From a virus: 58,410 nt of DNA. The stretch covers positions 1-58,410 of IMG/VR virus record IMGVR_UViG_3300045988_065473, one strand, 5' to 3'. The notes under the pieces were generated by a model, which saw only the letters and a program-made list of their open reading frames with translations, made no database searches and had not been told where the DNA came from. How positions within the stretch are numbered: the first letter of the stretch is position 1; every line of letters begins with the position of its first letter. Positions 10,038 to 18,096 of this stretch are shown here, one piece after another. Position numbers and translations under genes: made by a program.

Positions 10038-10484
10038 ATGATGAAAGTAGAACATTCTAGCGAAACAGATTCATTGGCGTATGAAGAATGGGCTAAAGAA
10101 CGGTCGGATGTCACAAATGTCAATTATGTTGAAACTGGATGTATAATTTGGCACTCTATCAAGAAAGAAGGATTCCCACCAGAACAAACTTGCGAAAAAT
10201 ATCTTATTTCCGTTGAAAATTGGCATACAGGGAAAAGCTACGTAAATGCCGCATATTTTATTAGGAAGGGATGGTTCGACAGCGTGTATACGGAAGAAGG
10301 GAAAATAATACCAGAACACGATATTGTAACACACTGGGCGAATTTGCCAAAACCGGCACAACTTCCCAAAAGGCCAAGATTCCCATTGGACAATCAAACG
10401 CCAGAAGAAAGAGAAGCTGAAGCAAAAGAAAAAGCAAAACAACTACAAGAAAAAATAATGAAAGCGTTTGGATATAACGTATAA
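10038..10484 (+). CDS. DUF551-like protein
   Basis: ...HDIVTHWANLPKPA signature. GGAGAAAGGAAG RBS. Confidence 0.6.
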   Translation: MMKVEHSSETDSLAYEEWAKERSDVTNVNYVETGCIIWHSIKKEGFPPEQTCEKYLISVENWHTGKSYVNAAYFIRKGWFDSVYTEEGKIIPEHDIVTHWANLPKPAQLPKRPRFPLDNQTPEEREAEAKEKAKQLQEKIMKAFGYNV

Positions 10485-10491
10485 AAAAATC

Positions 10492-10530
10492 CCCCTGTGT
10501 AGTTTTTAACGGCTACACAGGGGTTCTGTT
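10492..10530. terminator. Bidirectional rho-independent terminator
   Basis: CCCCTGTGTAG...CTACACAGGGG, an 11-bp stem between A- and T-rich runs at convergent gene ends. Confidence 0.8.
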
Positions 10531-11169
10531 TTACTTATCAGCAATGCAATCCCAGTAGAGATATGCCTTGCCATCTGCGGCATCTGCGTCCTCAAGGAAC
10601 GCCTTTGCCATGTCAGCGTAGAAGCCCGGAGTGTCAACGGACTGACGCTTTGCGACCTGACAGTAATCCGAGTACATCATGTTCATGACAGCCCAGAAAT
10701 CGTTCGGGTCACAGGTGATATTGCGCTGTTTCGCAACATCCTGTGTCTGTTCCAGCGTCCAGTGACAGCCCTTCGTACCGTCAGCGTTGACCATGCTATC
10801 ACACCATTCCTCTGCTTCATCGTGGGTGAGGTGCTGGCGTGGCATCTTGATGGAGCGGCTGTCTGCACTGCCATGTTCGTACTGGCCAGACCGTTTATCC
10901 CAGTCGCCGTTCTGCGAGAAGCCGATTTGCGGCATCTTGCGCCCATACTCTACGTCAGGGTAGCGGGGGATAGGGTAGGGGTCGGTGTAACGGTTTTCCT
11001 CCTGCGGATAGTAGGGATAGCGGTCGTTGCCACCTTCCAGCTTGCGCAGACGGCGTTCAATCTCACGCTCCCTGCGGTCACGCTCTTCCTCAAGGCGGTT
11101 ACGTTCCGGCTCACGGTCTTTATCGTGGTCACGGAGCATCATCATGCGGCGAAAATTGTTCTTGCCCAT
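10531..11169 (-). CDS. Accessory-cassette protein 6 (charged R/E-rich N-terminus, conserved-looking C-terminal domain)
   Basis: 212-aa ORF. No family recognised. Confidence 0.6.
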   Translation of the reverse strand: MGKNNFRRMMMLRDHDKDREPERNRLEEERDRREREIERRLRKLEGGNDRYPYYPQEENRYTDPYPIPRYPDVEYGRKMPQIGFSQNGDWDKRSGQYEHGSADSRSIKMPRQHLTHDEAEEWCDSMVNADGTKGCHWTLEQTQDVAKQRNITCDPNDFWAVMNMMYSDYCQVAKRQSVDTPGFYADMAKAFLEDADAADGKAYLYWDCIADK

Positions 11170-11182
11170 AATCTACACCTCC

Positions 11183-11554
11183 TCAAGAAATAGACGCAGG
11201 CGCACCGGCGTGAGAGCAGCAGAAGCAGCCCAGATATTTGAACGTTCCGGTGCCGGTCGCAGACGTTGCCACACGAGTAGCATAACGAGTGCGAGTGTGG
11301 ATGCTCTCAGCGGTTGCCTGAGCGCAGTTGCAGTCGGTCAGAGGGTATGCGGTCGTACCTGCACCGATGGTAATGACCACAGGGGCGTTGATGGTGGTCG
11401 TGTCCGGGATGCTCTGGGCAACCACGATGCAATACTTCTCTCCGTTCTGGTATGCGCCAGCAGGGATGTTAATGGTCAGCGTATCGTTGGCAAACGTGAC
11501 AGACTGGCTCAAGACCAGATGCGGGCAGAGTTTGCAGCTTGTTTTGCAAGCCAT
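11183..11554 (-). CDS. Accessory-cassette protein 5, Cys-rich (MACKTSCKLC...CFCCSH)
   Basis: 123-aa ORF with Cys clusters at both termini. Confidence 0.6.
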   Translation of the reverse strand: MACKTSCKLCPHLVLSQSVTFANDTLTINIPAGAYQNGEKYCIVVAQSIPDTTTINAPVVITIGAGTTAYPLTDCNCAQATAESIHTRTRYATRVATSATGTGTFKYLGCFCCSHAGAPASIS

Positions 11555-11639
11555 AGTGTTTTCCTCCTAAAAAATCAGGGGCAGAGGTGTCTTACCCCTG
11601 CCCCGATAGTTCACCCGGTGTTATCGGGGAGTGTGTTGG

Positions 11640-12512
11640 TTAGTAGCAGCCGCAGCAGTTCACGCCCACGTTGGGATTTGCCACCTGATAAGCGGGAATC
11701 GGACGAGGATTGACCCGGTTCAGGATGGTATCGGTCTGCTGGGACATCACGGTGGTCAGAAGCGCATTCTGCCGATCCTGAGAAGCGGCGAACTTCAGGT
11801 TCTGGTTCTCAGCGGTCAGAGTTGCAATCTTGTCCTGCGTGAAGTAGTCCATCATGCTGCGGAAGTTGGCGTTGCAGTTGTCCACGATGGCGCGGGCGTT
11901 GTCTGCGATAGCCTGACGGGTAGCGCAGTCCTCCGTTGCGATGGTGTACTTCAGGTCGCCGATCAGCTGTTTGTTCTCGCAGCAGCAAGATGCAAGCTGC
12001 GTGGCAAGAGCAGTCTGACCAGCCTGCCGTGCGTTGCCCTCCTGCATGATAGCAAGGCTAATGGCGTTGTCACCGTTGGACACGCTGCGTTCCAGACCGT
12101 TCACGAGCTGTGCGTTCTGGTAGCCAAGCTGACAGATGGCACTGTTCACTCCTGCAAAGCCGTTCGCGATGTTGGTGTTGACGCCGTTCATCTGCGCCAG
12201 CTGGTCATAGCCCAGAGAGCAGATACCGCTCTGGATGCCCGCCAGAGAGCGGGAGGTATCCTGCTGGTAGAAGCCCTCAGACAGAGCCGCGCGGGTGTCG
12301 TTGCCGCCCTGCCCGGTTGCGCCAGTGCCGACCAGATAGGGGATGTAGCTCGCCATACCGTTGTCGCTGCCGTTGCGCCCGTTGCCGTAGTTGCCCCAGC
12401 CGAAGATGATGGCGAGGATGATAACCGCCCACAGACCTTCGTTGCCGAAGAACCCGCCGTTGTTATTGCCGCCGTCCTGCCCAGCCAGATAGCCAGTTGC
12501 AAAATCGTCCAT
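11640..12512 (-). CDS. Accessory-cassette protein 4: Gly/Asn-rich N-terminus, one TM, Q/N-rich body, C-terminal CCGCY
   Basis: 290-aa ORF. GGFFGNEGLWAVIILAIIFGWG resembles YjcZ-type tiny TM peptides. Confidence 0.6.
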   Translation of the reverse strand: MDDFATGYLAGQDGGNNNGGFFGNEGLWAVIILAIIFGWGNYGNGRNGSDNGMASYIPYLVGTGATGQGGNDTRAALSEGFYQQDTSRSLAGIQSGICSLGYDQLAQMNGVNTNIANGFAGVNSAICQLGYQNAQLVNGLERSVSNGDNAISLAIMQEGNARQAGQTALATQLASCCCENKQLIGDLKYTIATEDCATRQAIADNARAIVDNCNANFRSMMDYFTQDKIATLTAENQNLKFAASQDRQNALLTTVMSQQTDTILNRVNPRPIPAYQVANPNVGVNCCGCY

Positions 12513-12652
12513 AACAAAACTCCTTTCAGTTTTGCGTTATGCTATCCCACCGCCGTATGCGATGGGCGAAGCCAAACAAAAGCGGTTTTTGTCAAGTCCG
12601 CAAAACTGAGAAGCGTTTCGCTTAGAGAGATGCTTATTTTAGGGTTGTTAAG

Positions 12653-12814
12653 TCAGCTCGGAGGGTTGTCTTTTTTATCTTTTGAGTCATCCCAATTTTT
12701 GCTGGCAGCACCGAAAATGAAGCCAAGCATTAAAGGAACCCATATTTTGTCATCGCCACACAGATTGTTGATGTCAAAATCTTTTTCGGAATGGCTGTTT
12801 TCAAAATCATCCAT
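12653..12814 (-). CDS. Accessory-cassette protein 3 (53 aa, 1 TM)
   Basis: Hand-translated as MDDFENSHSEKDF...IWVPLMLGFIFGAAS... GAGGAG RBS. Shares the MDDF start with protein 4. Confidence 0.45.
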   Translation of the reverse strand: MDDFENSHSEKDFDINNLCGDDKIWVPLMLGFIFGAASKNWDDSKDKKDNPPS

Positions 12815-12826
12815 CGCAAAGTCTCC

Positions 12827-13078
12827 TCACTTCGGAAGCGTCAAATTCAGGACGCTTGCCAGCTGGTTCAGGTCGATGCCGCGCTCTTTGGCGAGGTTCT
12901 GCGCCATCGTTCGGAGCTGTGCTTCGTTCTTGCCCTGAATCAGGTTCAAGCCCTGCATAATGGGGGCGCTCTGCCCACCCAGCTGCTGGATAAGACCCAT
13001 CGGGTTTTGTCCGGCACGAGCAAGGTTTGCAAGCTGCATGATAGGGCTGTGAGTAATCATATCAAACGGAGAGGGCAT
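12827..13078 (-). CDS. Accessory-cassette protein 2
   Basis: 83-aa Q/L/N-rich ORF. Confidence 0.5.
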   Translation of the reverse strand: MPSPFDMITHSPIMQLANLARAGQNPMGLIQQLGGQSAPIMQGLNLIQGKNEAQLRTMAQNLAKERGIDLNQLASVLNLTLPK

Positions 13079-13081
13079 CGC

Positions 13082-13600
13082 TTATTCTCCTTTCTTAGCG
13101 GTGGCAGCGGGCTTAGAAAAGCTTTTCTGCCACTTTTCCAGTTCGTCCAGCCGATGCACAAGGGCGTTGTACTGTTCAATAGGCACATACTGCTGTGTCG
13201 GTGCAGCGGTTTGCTGTGCCTGTTGTGCTTGCATTTGCCTCCACGCTTCCGGGCTGTAGAACTCCTGCACATAGGATTCGCAGGTGTCCGGATTGAGCCG
13301 CTTGCAGTAGATCACGCCACTGCGCAAGTCCGGGCAGTAGGTCGGTCTGCCGTACAGGTCAGACGGTATCGCCAAAAATTCTTCCCTGCTGGAAACAGGT
13401 CTGCCAAGCAACCAGCCGCCATCTTGTGCCGACTGCTGAACAGGCTGCTGCCCATTCATCGGCTGCGGACGCTGCGGCTGCGCCTGTTGCATCTGCGTGT
13501 TCGGCAGGGGAGTGGCAAGTCCAACTGTGCCCATGCCGCCGTAAGGATTGACAGGCTGTTGCGGAACGTAGGGCGCTCCGGATGCCGGATAATAGCTCAT
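13082..13600 (-). CDS. Accessory-cassette protein 1 (P/Q-rich N-terminus)
   Basis: AAGGAGGG RBS 7 nt before the ATG at 13600. Confidence 0.6.
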   Translation of the reverse strand: MSYYPASGAPYVPQQPVNPYGGMGTVGLATPLPNTQMQQAQPQRPQPMNGQQPVQQSAQDGGWLLGRPVSSREEFLAIPSDLYGRPTYCPDLRSGVIYCKRLNPDTCESYVQEFYSPEAWRQMQAQQAQQTAAPTQQYVPIEQYNALVHRLDELEKWQKSFSKPAATAKKGE

Positions 13601-13734
13601 AATACATCCCTCCTTGTGCAACCAGTGTACTGCATCGGCAGAAACCGAGAGACAACGAACGCACAACGAAGGACAAAAAAGAAAAGCGCCCACACGGAAA
13701 AATCCGCATGAGCGCTTGAAAAATTGTATATAAA

Positions 13735-13776
13735 TAAAAACCCCCGATGCTCCAAACGGAACACCGGGGGTTTTAT
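13735..13776. terminator. Bidirectional terminator between the late operon and the accessory cassette
   Basis: AACCCCCG...CGGGGGTT stem flanked by A5 and T4 runs. Confidence 0.65.
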
Positions 13777-13930
13777 GCCGCCAAAACGGCTAAGTCTAAA
13801 ATCAAGAGCGGAACCGCCCACAGGCAATGCCGCTCTCTACAAAGGCCGCAGCCTTTCAAATATCCACCCTAATGCGCTTCTTCGAGAGGCCGGGTGGATT
13901 TGTTGAGATTATTATACCACAATCCGTGCA

Positions 13931-13969
13931 AAAAGAAAAGCCAGCGGGTAAACGTTCTTCCGCTGGCTT
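13931..13969 (-). terminator. Terminator after the sigma-like gene
   Basis: AAGCCAGCGG...CCGCTGGCTT, a 10-bp stem followed on the minus strand by TTTCTTTTT. Confidence 0.7.
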
Positions 13970-14026
13970 CCTGTACACTATGCCGTCACTGGGTGTACAC
14001 CAGTACGGCCTCGCATACATAGTATA

Positions 14027-14251
14027 TCACACATCCAGAATTTTATCAATAATTTTCAGCCTATTGCCGATTGATGTCCGACAATACGGCACACGCGCTG
14101 CAATATCAACTTGGCATAGCTGGTCAACGTACCGCAACCGGGCGATTTTCCGGTCATACCTCCCAAGCGGCGCACGTTTTATCACAGCTTTTATCTGTTC
14201 TGCATTAAGCCCTTGCAACGCTGGCGGAAAGACTATGCGAGCCGCCGCCAC
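14027..14251 (-). CDS. Sigma-70 region-4-like / DUF1492-like small transcription regulator (possibly the C-terminal part of a longer gene)
   Basis: ARLRYVDQLCQVDIAARVPYCRTSIGNRLKII looks like a region-4 HTH. GTG start without an RBS. Confidence 0.5.
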   Translation of the reverse strand: MAAARIVFPPALQGLNAEQIKAVIKRAPLGRYDRKIARLRYVDQLCQVDIAARVPYCRTSIGNRLKIIDKILDV

Positions 14252-14999: not shown

Positions 15000-16574
15000 T
15001 TAGGTCGTTGTCATGGACGCTACTGCGTCCTCAATGCGTTTGATGGCGATGTTTACGTCCCGCTGGTAGTCCAGCTTGACCCCAGCACCGTCACCAGCCT
15101 GCACCACCGTGTCAGGGCCGCACATTGTGAGCGCTTTGTAGGCGGCAATTTCAGCAGGGGTGAGCGGAGTTTCGATGGGATCGTCGAGAATGTAGAATAA
15201 AATGTATTCTCCTTCTTCCGGGTTTTTAGCGCCAATGGGAATAAAAACCTGCGCATTGTTTGTGTCTACATAAAAGTGAATGGTATCGCTAGTAAACGAA
15301 ACGAAATATGGCAATCTATTGCATAGGGCTTTTGCTGTATAATCTTTACCTTTGAGTGGCAACCGAATCGCAAGTCGTTTTGTTGCCGCAAGGTTAGTGG
15401 AACCTGTAATTACACAGGTTGACAAGTCTACAGCGTTCACCCTCTGTACCTTTACACCCCTTTCCAAGTCCACCTCGTCGCACACCCACTGCTGGCCGCT
15501 TTGGTCAGTGTAGTTGCCGCCGGAGGTGACAGGGATGCCGGGCAAGCCGTTGGGAGTGAGCAGCGTGAGAGTTTGCACTTTACCGCCCCCATCACCCAAG
15601 GTCACTGCAATCGTCCCGCCGTCACCAGCGCTCACGATAGGCACAGGGGCATCCGGCGTGGGTGTGCCGTCCTGAGTGCTCTTACCGTACACGGTCAGGC
15701 CGCACAGGGGCGCAGAGAACGCATCGTCAACGCTGAGCGGGTTGCCTGTCTCCGTGCCGATAAGGATGTTCTGCCGGGCCTTGACTGCGCTGATCGCGTC
15801 ACCTGCGGCTTTTGCGTCAGCGGCCTCGCTCTCATGGGTGAGGGTGGTATCCAGCGCTACGGCAGGGCCGGTCTCTCCTTTAGGGCCTTGCGGGCCGGTA
15901 TCACCTTTTTCGCCCTGTGGGCCAGTGTTGCCCGTAGCACCTGTGGGGCCTTGAGGGCCTTGCTCACCCTGCGGGCCGACCGGGCCAATGGGGCCAGTGT
16001 CGCCCTTGTCACCTTTCTCGCCTTTGAAATCGCCGCTTGCGATGCCGTCCTTCAGCTCTTGCAGACTGTCGGCGGCTTCCTGAGCGCTCTGGTCTGCGTT
16101 GCCCGCACTGTCAGCGGCTTGCTGTGCTGCGGTCTGTGCATCGGTCTTGGCTTGCTCTGCGGCGGTGGCATCGGTGTGCACGGCATCCACCAACTGCTGC
16201 CATGCAGGGGTGCCCGGTTCCGGCATGGTGCCGTCCTCTGTGCCGGAGTTGGCACTGACACGATACCGCAGGTCTGCGCTGGTGACGGTCTTAGTGCCGT
16301 CGCTGCCCTCAAAGGTGATGCACCCGCTCCCGGGCTGTGCGGTCACGCTGGCGGGCACGTCCACATAGCCGTCCACCACCAACGAGGATGACGGATCTTT
16401 GCCGTCCGGCACGTGCCAGAAGCAGCGGATAGTCAGCCCTTCCCACTCGCCGGTTGCATCGACGTGCAGGCGGTACACGCCCCGGTTCTTGGTGTAGCCA
16501 AAGCGCACCAGCTGCTCATAGCCCGGCACTTTGACGACGCCATTGGATGCGAGAGATACGCTTTGCTCGATCAT
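15000..16574 (-). CDS. Tail fibre with a collagen-like triple-helix repeat
   Basis: Gly-X-Y run [53 protein letters not shown]. Confidence 0.8.
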
Positions 16575-16577
16575 AAA

Positions 16578-16913
16578 TTACTCCTTGTTGATGGTAGGCT
16601 TCTTGCTTTCCAGTGCCTTTTTCATCATGCTGACAGCCTTTTCGATCACGCTGTCCAGCACTTCATCGGTGATAAAAGGCTTCAGCCAGTCCGGCAGTGC
16701 GCCGCGCAGTGTGGCAAAGACCTGTGCCTTTTTCTTTGCGCCCTGACCGCTGCCCATGATGCTGTCCTCGGCGATGGTCACGAGCTCCAGCGCCCACTGC
16801 TTGACGTACTGCTTGTAACCCAGCCGGATGGCACCAACGGCCAGCGCAGCAAAGCCGATGAACATCAGTACCAGTGCGATGGGTGCGGGGATAAAGTTAA
16901 ACATTGCTTCCAT
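16578..16913 (-). CDS. Holin (LL-H-like: N-terminal TM plus a charged helical tail)
   Basis: TM segment FIPAPIALVLMFIGFAALAVGAI. Adjacent to the lysin. Confidence 0.6.
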   Translation of the reverse strand: MEAMFNFIPAPIALVLMFIGFAALAVGAIRLGYKQYVKQWALELVTIAEDSIMGSGQGAKKKAQVFATLRGALPDWLKPFITDEVLDSVIEKAVSMMKKALESKKPTINKE

Positions 16914-17286
16914 GATTTGTTACTCCTTTCAGCAGGTAGTTGTTAATATCGGATTTACTTTTTTGCATACCTTCGCGGTTATTTCCGGACAGCTGCGAAT
17001 CCAAAAGATTTTGTACGCCAACGAGTACGAGACGCATTTCTTCATCGAGGCCGTCAAAGCGGCGCAGGTCTCTTGCAAGGGCCTGTGCGTGCTGAAGCTG
17101 TCCCTGTTCCAGCACGCCAAGTCTTTTTTCGATCGTATCCATTCGCTTGTTCTGCGCATCGTCTGGGGCCTGTGCCTTTTTGACGTACTTGTGGATGATG
17201 TCCAACACCTTGTCGATGGTGATGGCCGCAGCGCACAGGCTGCCCAAGATGCCCAGCACCCACAGTAAAGCTTCTTTTTCGGTCAT
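16897..17286 (-). CDS. Membrane-anchored coiled-coil protein (XhlA-like lysis accessory or second holin)
   Basis: N-terminal TM plus coiled coil. Overlaps the lysin stop. Confidence 0.45.
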   Translation of the reverse strand: MTEKEALLWVLGILGSLCAAAITIDKVLDIIHKYVKKAQAPDDAQNKRMDTIEKRLGVLEQGQLQHAQALARDLRRFDGLDEEMRLVLVGVQNLLDSQLSGNNREGMQKSKSDINNYLLKGVTNHGSNV

Positions 17287-17972
17287 TTACCCTCCCGGAG
17301 ACGGGTCAGGCCCTTCTTGCTGATGATACCCGCATAGTCCTTATAAGCGTAACTCAGGTCTACGTTGCCGCTCACGCCCGGCATGCTGGCGGTGCTGGTG
17401 TACTGCCACATCCCAAAGGAAAAGTCTGTTTTGGGCTTGTCCTCCGGTTTGGTCTTGCTCTTGTCTCTGGGATATCTTGCCAGCCATACATCGTACTTGC
17501 GCAGCGCCGCGCCACCCATGTACAACTCCGTCTGCGCAAAATTTAGCCCGACATACAGCAGGGCATAAAAGCCCCAGCGCTCCACCGTAGCAAGCGCATA
17601 AGCGGCAAGGTCGGTCAGCGCCTGTGTGGACAGCTTCTTGATTTTGTTGTCCTCCACGTCCACGCTGATGGGCAACTCAAAGGTCTTTCCGGTCAAGGCA
17701 GTCTTGAGCAAGGCAAGCTCTGCGTCTGCCATCTCTTTATCGGTGGCGTAGGTGTAGTAGTATACGCCAACCGGCAGACCAACGCGCTTACATTCGGCAT
17801 AGTTGCGCTCAAAGGTCGGGTCAATGTACAACCCATCCTTGCGCTTGCTCAACTTGCGGTTTGTGGACACGGCTTTAAGCATCACACCGTCGATTTTTCC
17901 GCTGCGCTTCACCGCGTCCCAGTCGATGCGGCCCTGCCAACGGGAGACGTCTAAGATGGTCTTATCAGCCAT
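17283..17972 (-). CDS. Endolysin, GH25 muramidase
   Basis: ILDVSRWQGRIDWDAVK...GVYYY...DVE motifs. GGAGG RBS before the ATG at 17972. Confidence 0.85.
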   Translation of the reverse strand: MADKTILDVSRWQGRIDWDAVKRSGKIDGVMLKAVSTNRKLSKRKDGLYIDPTFERNYAECKRVGLPVGVYYYTYATDKEMADAELALLKTALTGKTFELPISVDVEDNKIKKLSTQALTDLAAYALATVERWGFYALLYVGLNFAQTELYMGGAALRKYDVWLARYPRDKSKTKPEDKPKTDFSFGMWQYTSTASMPGVSGNVDLSYAYKDYAGIISKKGLTRLREGK

Positions 17973-18096
17973 TTTCCTGCGCCTCCTTGTCCAGCTCGGC
18001 CTGTACGCGGGCCCGCCAGCGGGTCGGAACGTCGTCAATGGTGAAGGTGCCGTCAAACCGGTGGAGCTTGATCTGCGTCACGTAAAATTTTACCAT
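17965..18096 (-). CDS. XkdX-like small protein (43 aa)
   Basis: Hand-translated as MVKFYVTQIKLHRFDGTFTIDDVPTRWRARVQAELDKEAQENG. AGGAGGT RBS. Confidence 0.55.
   Translation of the reverse strand: MVKFYVTQIKLHRFDGTFTIDDVPTRWRARVQAELDKEAQENG

Follow-up and report, generated by a model that had tools for sequence, protein, structure and literature searches.

The six minus-strand genes at positions 10,531 to 13,600 of the IMG/VR record IMGVR_UViG_3300045988_065473, which was analysed here over positions 1 to 58,410 (58,410 nucleotides (nt), hereafter the window), are one copy, designated type A, of a widespread and conserved five-slot module of gut Clostridia phages. An initial annotation of this DNA had named the cassette as a candidate lysogenic-conversion or novel accessory system; it is not an idiosyncratic island of this kind but one representative of a widespread module that is kept in close relatives. 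We consider, with a probability of about one in three (0.35), that the module encodes a phage-regulated, late-expressed assembly at the cytoplasmic membrane that acts around lysis and virion release. The evidence for such an assembly is stronger than that for its particular role, and the link to lysis is the weakest part of the proposal, since some copies of the module are distant from the lysin gene.

The comparison of gene neighbourhoods that the initial annotation had proposed was carried out by iterative profile searches and by clustering of the open reading frames (ORFs) neighbouring g4, the fourth gene of the cassette (genes g1 to g6, in the order of transcription), and slot architecture was counted in 72 loci of gut Clostridia phages and prophages with sufficient DNA on both flanks. 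The order of the five slots was identical in all 72, at g4 identities down to about 25-35%. Slot 1 is occupied by the P/Q/Y-rich g1 (67 loci), and slot 2 by a small, Q-rich protein, either g2 (41 loci) or g2b (~71 amino acids (aa), 20 loci). Slot 3 holds g4, the universal core, in which an N-terminal transmembrane helix precedes a helical rod of ~200 residues, and which has a CxC-rich tail and an invariant CCC motif. Slot 4 contains a Cys-rich beta protein, either g5 (29 loci) or f3 (~143 aa, 41 loci), and slot 5 an R/G/Y-rich protein, either g6 (16 loci) or f1 (54 loci), the latter being a protein of ~185 aa whose ends are helical and whose centre is R/G/Y-rich. Profile comparison of the alternative families in slots 2, 4 and 5, including f3 with g5 and f1 with g6, detected no similarity; f1 and g6 have the motif NGR[YF]AP / RDSxGRY in common. 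g6 was present solely where g5 is, at 16 of 16 loci. A BclA- or C1q-like nature of f3, suspected from its C-terminal '...NANLIVERVA', was rejected, as neither Pfam nor PDB gave a match.

Several genes accompany the module optionally. The family f5 (~107 aa, 25 of the 72 loci, for instance L033:10104-10427) has an HExxH motif and weak SprT/M78-like matches, and f7 (~128 aa, phrog_3754, 19 loci, for instance L084:3175-3561) has an invariant Asp-Cys, His and Asp; f7 had no match in Pfam or PDB, and its residues suggest a papain- or transglutaminase-like triad. Together, f5 and f7 hint at proteolytic maturation or cross-linking of Q-rich partners. A gene for a sigma-region-4-like protein lies within four ORFs upstream of g4 in 25 of the 72 loci. 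In some other cassettes, g4 is followed by fam14, a different optional small hydrophobic coiled-coil protein of ~74 aa.

The module families are large. Homologues of g4 form more than 7,300 clusters at 90% identity, none of which is named or has a Pfam domain, and single g4 clusters hold thousands of metagenome sequences; g5 forms 1,544 clusters at 90% identity and 371 at 50% identity, nearly all of the latter free-standing proteins of ~125 aa, and g6 forms 222 clusters. A scan with one genome per species found g4 relatives at 221 places, and the hosts of the best 80 of these, which were listed, are mostly Oscillospiraceae, Acutalibacteraceae, Lachnospiraceae, Ruminococcaceae and unclassified Clostridia. 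Cultured carriers include Anaerotruncus colihominis DSM 17241, Lachnospira intestinalis (CLA-AA-H89B) and Muriventricola aceti (H5_61), and a prophage of Vescimonas fastidiosa MM35 also carries the module. In INPHARED and PLSDB, the module was found only in phages from metagenomes and in a single prophage, located on a Vescimonas replicon, with the annotation 'hypothetical' throughout. Among the loci surveyed, no copy was found outside a phage or prophage context.

In the proposed membrane-anchored assembly, g4 would be the rod and g5 the knob. The 290-aa g4 (11640-12512, minus strand) begins with a short, acidic, G/N-rich tail that is followed by a transmembrane helix at about residues 26-40. 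In 127 family members, on which all family statistics for g4 are based, the mean maximal Kyte-Doolittle hydropathy of this helix over 15 residues is 2.1, and the 25 residues before it contain on average 0.48 K+R and 2.8 D+E and the 25 residues after it 0.87 K+R. This charge bias weakly favours a topology with the N-terminus outside and the C-terminus inside, in which the rod would be cytoplasmic. An AlphaFold2 model built from 47 sequences, of low confidence (predicted local distance difference test score, pLDDT, 53.5), contains a transmembrane helix at residues 26-36 and long helices at 73-145 and 152-267, and g4 is probably a rod that needs to oligomerise. The CCC at 176-178 is kept in 126 of the 127 members, and C98, C196, the heptad-like DKIATLxAENQxLKFAASQ and a P.PAY.VPNPN motif are also conserved. 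The G/Y/N-rich, CxC-rich tail, typically PNPNCCY...GCGC, has two to five Cys within the last 12 residues in 124 of the 127, and no co-variation of this tail with the family in slot 4 was found. A type IV pilin-like signal (G|FFGNE) was considered and rejected because its Glu is not conserved across the family. Profile searches of g4 against PDB gave no significant match, and the Foldseek matches of the low-confidence model are meaningless.

In g5 (11183-11554, minus strand, 123 aa, 7.3% Cys), the model (pLDDT 70.6) is an eight-stranded beta-sandwich with a disordered N-terminal MACKxxCKLC arm (C3, C7 and C10; CxxxCxxC), and C42, C77 and a C-terminal CC are conserved. A profile of 24 homologues had 0 matches among all PDB sequences at E <= 10, and Foldseek with the model, which is of moderate confidence, returned nothing from PDB at E <= 0.001. 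Against BFVD, the model matched members of its own family; weaker matches (TM-score on the query 0.45-0.56, E 1e-3 to 1e-1) were to the knobs at the C-termini of phage tail-fibre and collagen-like proteins. The model also aligned with a 294-aa protein of a crAss-like virus that is annotated as DUF7841-containing. This match, together with the restriction of g6 to g5-bearing loci, suggests that g5 and g6 are partners, as g6 (10531-11169, minus strand, 212 aa) consists of an R/E/D/Y-rich disordered N-terminal half and a helical domain, residues 109-202, that is Pfam DUF7841 (PF25223; E 9e-26, 90.8 bits against a cut-off of 25.2). All relatives of g6 are named 'DUF7841', and its homologues carry PF25223. 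Domain fusions of g5 were uninformative, the few long matches being chimeras with lysin, integrase, terminase or kinase fragments.

Of the remaining products, g1 and g2 are low-complexity proteins. The 172-aa g1 (13082-13600, minus strand), read from the ATG at 13600 behind the ribosome-binding site AAGGAGGG, has a P/Q/Y-rich disordered N-terminus, a small alpha/beta core with the conserved pattern V.S.EEA...G.V..FPD....IY.K..N..G and a C-terminal helix, and it matched nothing in Pfam or PDB; the longest ORF, with a GTG start and 203 aa, is an over-extension relative to this ATG. The 83-aa g2 (12827-13078, minus strand) is a small Q/N/M/P-rich helical protein. The 53-aa g3 (12653-12814, minus strand) is a facultative peptide with a weakly hydrophobic helix. 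It sits in a 192-bp insertion of 39.5% GC within 12630-12825, which is polymorphic among type-A cassettes (present in the window and L098, absent from L001 and L007), and its MDDF start and W...FG hydrophobic stretch resemble the N-terminal membrane segment of g4. Of the description of g3 as a 53-aa transmembrane peptide of the cassette, the ORF and the hydrophobic helix stood, but the peptide belongs to a facultative low-GC insertion and not to the core.

All six minus-strand ORFs of the initial annotation are present in the ORF list at their given places, closely spaced, with GGAGG-type ribosome-binding sites for g3, g5 and g6 and AAAGGAG for g4, and the MDDF starts on two products, which are g3 and g4, are real. 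Some details needed correction: the GGNNNGGFFGNEG stretch of g4 is N-terminal and not a tail, g5 does not end in CFCCSH but continues to ...CFCCSHAGAPASIS, and the supposed 290-bp gap at 13777-13930 measures 154 bp. That the products have no recognisable family was nearly right; g6 is a DUF7841 protein and PHROG matches exist for g1 (phrog_21718), g4 (phrog_16490) and, weakly, g5 (36614, E 6e-4), but all of these, and every other PHROG match among the module families, are of unknown function. Pfam, PHROGs, NCBIfam, PDB and PADLOC agree with the view that there is no likeness to known virion, replication or defence families. In scans at E <= 1, a threshold used for Pfam as well, none of the six proteins matched NCBIfam; in PADLOC-DB at E <= 0.1, g1 to g6, f3 and the sigma-like protein described below were unmatched and f7 had only a spurious match (E = 0.004), so that known anti-phage defence systems were rejected. 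Searches of the literature on DUF7841, phrog_16490, cysteine-rich or coiled-coil prophage proteins and Oscillospiraceae phage-plasmids found nothing relevant.

The enrichment of the cassette proteins in Cys, Q/N and G is real, Cys making up 3.0% of their residues compared with 0.9% in sampled late genes and 1.5% in the plasmid-module genes. The cassette, with 56.2% GC and a GC content at third codon positions (GC3) of 0.68, is richer in GC than the plasmid module (44.9%) and than the sampled late genes (50.5% overall), as had been noticed by eye, but not than the adjoining lysis and fibre genes, since the adjacent holin, endolysin, p74 and collagen-fibre genes have 55-59% GC and a GC3 of 0.66-0.73, the same as the cassette; g3, at 39.5% GC, is the composition outlier. 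A hydrophobic helix occurs only in g4 and g3, and neither a hydrophobic segment nor, on reading of the N-termini, a signal peptide was seen in g1, g2, g5 and g6. The suggestion of a secreted or surface assembly is therefore unsupported, and the charge distribution of g4 weakly favours a cytoplasmic rod.

The description of a discrete, terminator-insulated cassette was supported. The bidirectional terminator placed at 10492-10530 was confirmed at 10492-10523, where flanking T and A runs indicate function on both strands, and it is common to the cassette and the convergent plasmid-module gene at 10038-10484. On the other side, the terminator given as 13735-13776 was recovered as 13774-13737, and that at 13931-13969 is plain in the sequence, our scan having missed it (13969-13931) because its loop has 12 nt. 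Two further terminators had been overlooked, one at 13717-13684 and one inside the cassette between g4 and g5 (11604-11578), a terminator-like hairpin (11578-11604, minus strand) with an 11-bp stem, 8 GC pairs and a T-run. This internal hairpin may attenuate transcription, which would lower g5 and g6 relative to g1 to g4 and set the product ratio.

The cassette is retained in its phage lineage and is exchanged at the same time. For this comparison we used 71 viral contigs with a GH25 lysin related to that of the window, mostly 50-96% identical. All contigs that reach far enough past the sigma-like gene carry a cassette of type A, B, C or L143, the exception being L095, in which a deletion has left fragments of g1 and g5 plus g6. 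Type A cassettes, the type of the window, are more than 90% identical; type B has the order g2b, g4, g6, type C the order f7, g1, g2b, g4, f3, f1, and L143 differs from all three. In types B and C, g4 is 25-39% identical to that of the window, whereas the adjoining lysins are 80-96% identical; for L093, L097, L101, L107, L114, L117, L136, L143 and L159, the GH25 lysins are 63-96% and g4 just 25-39% identical to those of the window. A TTCGTT-N5-TTCGTTG repeat is kept upstream of all cassette types in the lineage, and since it precedes such divergent cassettes, the recombination boundary lies just past the control region. In several relatives, up to 4.4 kb of unrelated DNA lies between the sigma-like gene and the cassette. 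As these insertions are upstream of the terminator and promoter, a flexible hot spot precedes the cassette and does not replace it. By analogy, this combination of retention and exchange is the pattern of lysis, immunity and receptor-binding modules and not that of sporadic cargo.

Rare variants were also found. In three metagenomic sequences (P0054, P0067 and P0070), the N-terminal part of the neighbouring collagen-like fibre protein continues in frame into the C-terminal half of g4; the three junctions differ, lie near AQTAA/QAGQTA-like sequences and result from deletions of several kb that removed the sigma-like gene, g1 and g2. Other variants of g4 have in-frame internal deletions (P0048 type) or are frameshifted (P0055 and P0084).

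The signals upstream of g1 suggest that the cassette is under phage control. The last gene of the late/lysis block, sig74 (14027-14251, minus strand), encodes a 74-aa protein with a sigma-region-4-like helix-turn-helix, whose relatives match Sigma70_r4 (E 1.9e-4, a weak match) and PHROG sigma-factor/regulator families; the family comprises three sub-families linked by hhalign at 90-94% probability and is present in all close relatives. Within the 3' end of sig74, and directed at the cassette, lies a near-consensus sigma-A promoter, TTGATA-17-TATACT with TG (14021-14049, minus strand). It is followed, after sig74, by the intrinsic terminator AGCCAGCGG...CCGCTGGCT with a T-run (13931-13969, minus strand), which is conserved in L121 and L126. 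An extended -10 element, TGGTATAAT (13919-13911), then precedes ~170 nt of hairpins (13737-13919, minus strand) that end in the terminator 13774-13737 and include the hairpin ATCCACCC...GGGTGGAT, which had been pointed out before and is present at 13899-13862; parts of this segment are conserved in L126, L104, L110 and the L092 type. The RNA of this stretch (~170 nt, 13910 to 13737) may serve as an antitermination leader or be a small RNA. The 315-nt leader upstream of g1 folds far better than shuffled sequences (z = -11.4); Rfam gave no match at the gathering score and only weak sub-threshold, terminator-like ones.

Closer to g1, a hairpin with a T-run (13684-13717, minus strand) forms the 5' edge of the conserved cassette block. 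When 25 distinct type-A upstream sequences were compared, the block was found to start at this hairpin in nearly all of them, the hairpin being diverged in a few, and the DNA upstream of it is a mosaic that differs among the 25. The control region itself (13622-13670, minus strand) comprises direct repeats, TTCGTTGT-N3-TTCGTTGT (13670-13653), a conserved GATGCAGTACACTGG and a -10-like TACACT (13629-13624), followed by the ribosome-binding site. No -35 hexamer at proper spacing before TACACT was recognised on reading the window and the type-A upstream sequences. If TACACT is the -10 element, the repeats would lie at about -35 to -53, the position of a class II activator. The repeat also stands ahead of the type B, type C and L143 cassettes, and neither it nor the promoter motif was found elsewhere in the window, for instance in the late operon. 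Being common to all cassette types of the lineage and unique in the window, the control region would therefore belong to the phage backbone and survive replacement of the cassette.

Transcripts from the promoters at 14049-14021 or 13919-13911 would need to cross two or three terminators before g1. In other loci, a terminator-like hairpin within 250 nt upstream of g1 was found in 36 of 72, compared with 11 of 62 control windows. At five unrelated loci (L060:6914-6960, L067:1639-1690, L083:6888-6935, L085:2327-2375 and L086:3514-3560), a hairpin ~45 nt upstream of g1 has arms that differ yet remain complementary around a conserved GAAC loop (GACC in L086); it is preceded by (A/T)ACTTTT and followed by a T-run and then a -10-like TACAAT or TATAAA without a -35. 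Because a promoter that lacks a -35 stands directly behind a terminator, with a sigma-region-4-like gene upstream, expression is probably phage-controlled and late rather than constitutive in lysogens, and sig74 is most likely the candidate activator of the cassette, by activation or by antitermination.

In the window, the late operon ends, on the minus strand, with tail-fibre genes, a GH25 endolysin gene (17283-18056), a gene for a 129-aa membrane protein, a Phage_holin_6_1 holin gene (16578-16913), a gene for a collagen-repeat fibre protein (15000-16574), two small ORFs and the gene for the 74-aa sigma-like protein (14027-14251). Rep3 and ParA genes lie past the cassette in close relatives, for example L007, so that the element is a phage-plasmid, and the DNA of the window is similar solely to uncultured human-gut phages. 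In diverse genome loci, endolysin and holin domains dominate among the two nearest upstream ORFs of at least 100 aa (Amidase_2, 10; CHAP, 4; PG_binding_1, 4; SH3_3, 4; holin, 3; also GH25, Amidase_3, M23 and M15_3). The usual order is tail, holin, endolysin, module and then the prophage end or early genes, as in L007, L010, Vescimonas and Bajarodcaudo virus 5, and the module is co-oriented with the late genes at every locus where this could be checked. The collagen-repeat fibre gene and the small ORF downstream of it, p74, are mobile in the lineage: they follow the holin in L099, L106 and the window, precede the lysin in L123 and were not detected in many relatives.

These features can be combined in the following manner. 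The products would be made in the cytoplasm, where g4 would insert into the membrane so that its rod stays within the cell and its short acidic N-tail faces out. Through metal or disulfide bonds, the CCC of g4 and its Cys-rich tip may link to the Cys-rich N-terminal arm of the g5 knob, and the low-complexity g1, g2 and g6 may bind as matrix or adaptors, g5 and g6 probably being direct partners. The operon would be silent through its insulation until a phage regulator, likeliest sig74, switches the promoter on, so that the assembly would appear late in the lytic cycle, perform a membrane or envelope step accompanying lysis and virion release, and be exchanged between phages as a specificity-type cassette. 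A late role in the envelope or in lysis is proposed because of the insulated promoter without a -35 and the usual position at the end of the late/lysis block, and because of a GC3 like that of lysis genes, strong ribosome-binding sites, occurrence in phages and prophages only, and retention despite swapping. Two known lysis functions were rejected for these proteins: a spanin, since no lipobox or signal peptide was seen in any cassette protein, the hosts are Clostridia and the charge bias of g4 favours a cytoplasmic rod; and a holin, since neither g3 nor g4 matched a holin in Pfam or PHROG and the phage already has a holin gene at 16578-16913.

Several points weigh against this proposal. The module need not be linked to lysis genes: in Dulem virus 35, a complete temperate genome, it lies between the MuF-like minor capsid and the scaffold/major capsid genes, 17 kb from the lysin gene; in L004 it follows the major capsid gene, and in L002 and L003 it abuts att. 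The rare deletion and fusion variants show that loss of the cassette can occur, at least in the plasmid or prophage state. We know of no need for a third lysis function in monoderm hosts. The model of g4 is of low confidence at a pLDDT of 53.5, and its topology rests on a weak charge bias. The promoter lacking a -35 and its activator are putative, and two sig74 alleles, ~95% and ~62% identical to that of the window, stand before the same promoter, which leaves the pairing of regulator and promoter unproven. Furthermore, INPHARED contained no cultured phage with the module.

The alternative that we regard as the most serious, although still doubtful, is a cassette for lysogenic conversion or superinfection exclusion, that is, a multi-gene moron whose complex, anchored at the cytoplasmic membrane, would be expressed from the prophage or phage-plasmid and would block the DNA entry or the development of incoming phages or alter the lysogen in another manner. 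The cassette occupies a classic moron site between the lysis genes and the att or early genes, flanked by terminators and with a promoter of its own; a single-pass membrane protein is typical of superinfection exclusion (Sie) proteins; very divergent cassettes behind near-identical lysins resemble a specificity or immunity locus; and rare deletion variants survive. However, the presence of the module is not patchy, as nearly all close relatives keep it, and insertions have a hot spot of their own immediately upstream. Only phage and prophage contexts were found, with no PADLOC match. Known Sie genes are single genes, unlike the five conserved slots of the module, three of them of low complexity, and the absence of a consensus sigma-A promoter directly upstream of g1, the strong ribosome-binding sites and a GC3 like that of late genes also speak against this alternative.

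It is rather unlikely, but worth stating, that the module represents a widespread new stage of the phage life cycle, in which a phage-timed, membrane-anchored fibre, cross-linked by metal or disulfides and consisting of the g4 rod, the g5 or f3 knob and a low-complexity matrix, would carry out a new envelope function whose specificity is set by the interchangeable slot families. Such a function might be a 'third step' by which phages leave monoderm hosts, or a means of coupling the phage genome or virions to debris, membranes or spores. That the module lies outside every described kind of system rests on the absence of matches and not on a demonstrated new mechanism.

An accessory module of the virion (head or tail fibres, decoration or ejected proteins), in which g4 would be a rod, g5 or f3 a knob and the other products chaperones or adaptors, is unlikely. 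It would agree with the similarity of the g5 model to the C-terminal knobs of tail-fibre and collagen-like proteins, with the long helical rod predicted for g4, with the location of the module in the head module of two phages (L004 and Dulem virus 35), with its co-orientation with late genes and with its retention in nearly all close relatives. The in-frame fusions of the collagen-fibre N-part to the C-half of g4 in P0054, P0067 and P0070 point in the same direction, but they are weak evidence because about one in three deletions is in frame by chance. On the other hand, one would hardly expect a fibre to contain a universally conserved transmembrane helix, as g4 does, structural genes do not usually have their own terminators and a separate regulated promoter, and PHROG holds no structural annotation for these proteins. 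Cassette type is also independent of the tail-fibre allele: tf322 shows 91-97% identity both in L096, which has type A, and in L097 and L101, which have type B.

A sporulation or spore-surface module, whose proteins would act in the mother-cell cytoplasm to build or decorate an outer spore layer, like those of the coat, the exosporium nap or appendages, for the benefit of the lysogen or for carriage of the phage in spores, is improbable. Richness in Cys, Q/N, Y and G without a signal peptide resembles coat and exosporium proteins, a small beta-sandwich with an N-terminal Cys arm recalls the architecture of Ena and BclA, the optional f7 with its Cys, His and Asp may be a transglutaminase-like cross-linker, and the hosts are Clostridia. 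Nevertheless, neither sequence searches nor, at the moderate confidence of the g5 model, fold searches gave a match to Ena/DUF3992, BclA_C, CotY/Z, GerQ or YjcZ, no convincing sigma-E or sigma-K promoter was recognised by eye, the module lies in late operons, including head modules, and one carrier, Vescimonas fastidiosa, is described as non-spore-forming. The likeness to spore-coat, exosporium or YjcZ proteins that the initial annotation had noted thus held for composition only, as NCBIfam and Pfam gave no match. YjcZ (TIGR01732), a peptide of ~30-50 aa in which one transmembrane helix comes after a G-rich N-terminus, was rejected as no NCBIfam match appeared at E <= 1 and as only the first 40 of the 290 residues of g4 are alike in composition. 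Identity of g5 with Ena/DUF3992 was likewise rejected, with no Pfam PF13157 match at E <= 1 and no PDB profile match, which leaves an analogy only; there was also no Ena entry among the 50 Foldseek matches listed for the g5 model, itself of moderate confidence (pLDDT 70.6).

That the cassette is not one functional unit but a set of unrelated accessory or decaying ORFs lying together by chance is scarcely credible, since, although the 53-aa ORF is facultative and each of slots 2, 4 and 5 can hold either of two families without detectable similarity, this view is contradicted by the synteny of all 72 loci at such low g4 identity, by tight packing with strong ribosome-binding sites and by large families with conserved residues, including invariant Cys.

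Among the viruses of the human gut, the phages that infect Lachnospiraceae, Oscillospiraceae and Ruminococcaceae rank with the most abundant and the most poorly understood, and very many of them carry the module. If it has a function in the life cycle, as we propose, it would add a step to the standard model of development and lysis of Gram-positive phages; a role in exclusion or conversion would make it a major factor, hidden until now, in how gut phages interact with each other and with their hosts. Prophages with the module in cultured strains make it tractable for testing.

Comparison with known systems places these proposals in context. By its C-terminal half, g6 clearly belongs to DUF7841 (PF25223), a family without known function, so that this membership explains nothing. 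With regard to the receptor-binding knobs of fibres, g5 differs in being free-standing, at ~125 aa in nearly all of its 371 clusters, and its similarity to them is weak and its model of moderate confidence. Ena1A/B, Ena3A and BclA have in common with the cassette proteins a small eight-stranded beta-sandwich, a flexible N-terminal Cys arm, C-terminal cysteines, a stalk-and-knob arrangement and the lack of a signal peptide, whereas the cassette has no DUF3992, BclA_C or PDB profile match and no Foldseek PDB match at E <= 0.001, lies in a phage late region and has no recognised sporulation promoter.

When g4 is compared with the i-spanin Rz, which has a transmembrane segment, a coiled coil and intermolecular disulfides, and with XhlA of PBSX, which has a coiled coil and a membrane anchor, it is similar in being single-pass, in its long coiled-coil region and conserved Cys, and in the usual location of its gene downstream of holin and endolysin genes. 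It is unlike them in having neither sequence similarity nor a lipoprotein partner, in its monoderm hosts, in a predicted orientation opposite to that of Rz and in not always being near lysis genes. The region 13684-14049 of the window can be likened in its arrangement, with a regulator gene, a promoter, terminators and a leader, to the Q / PR' / tR' region of lambda. Finally, compared with morons, which are autonomous promoter-gene-terminator units of temperate phages, in many cases located behind the lysis genes, the cassette has five slots instead of one or two genes, has no consensus sigma-A promoter and adjoins a separate hot spot for cargo; moreover, it is retained and not sporadic, as all relatives with enough downstream DNA carry a cassette of one type or another, one of them partly deleted. 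Like morons, it has its own terminators (10492-10523; 13717-13684 and 13774-13737) and its own control region (13622-13670), is usually located between the lysis genes and the att or early genes, and is exchanged as a unit.

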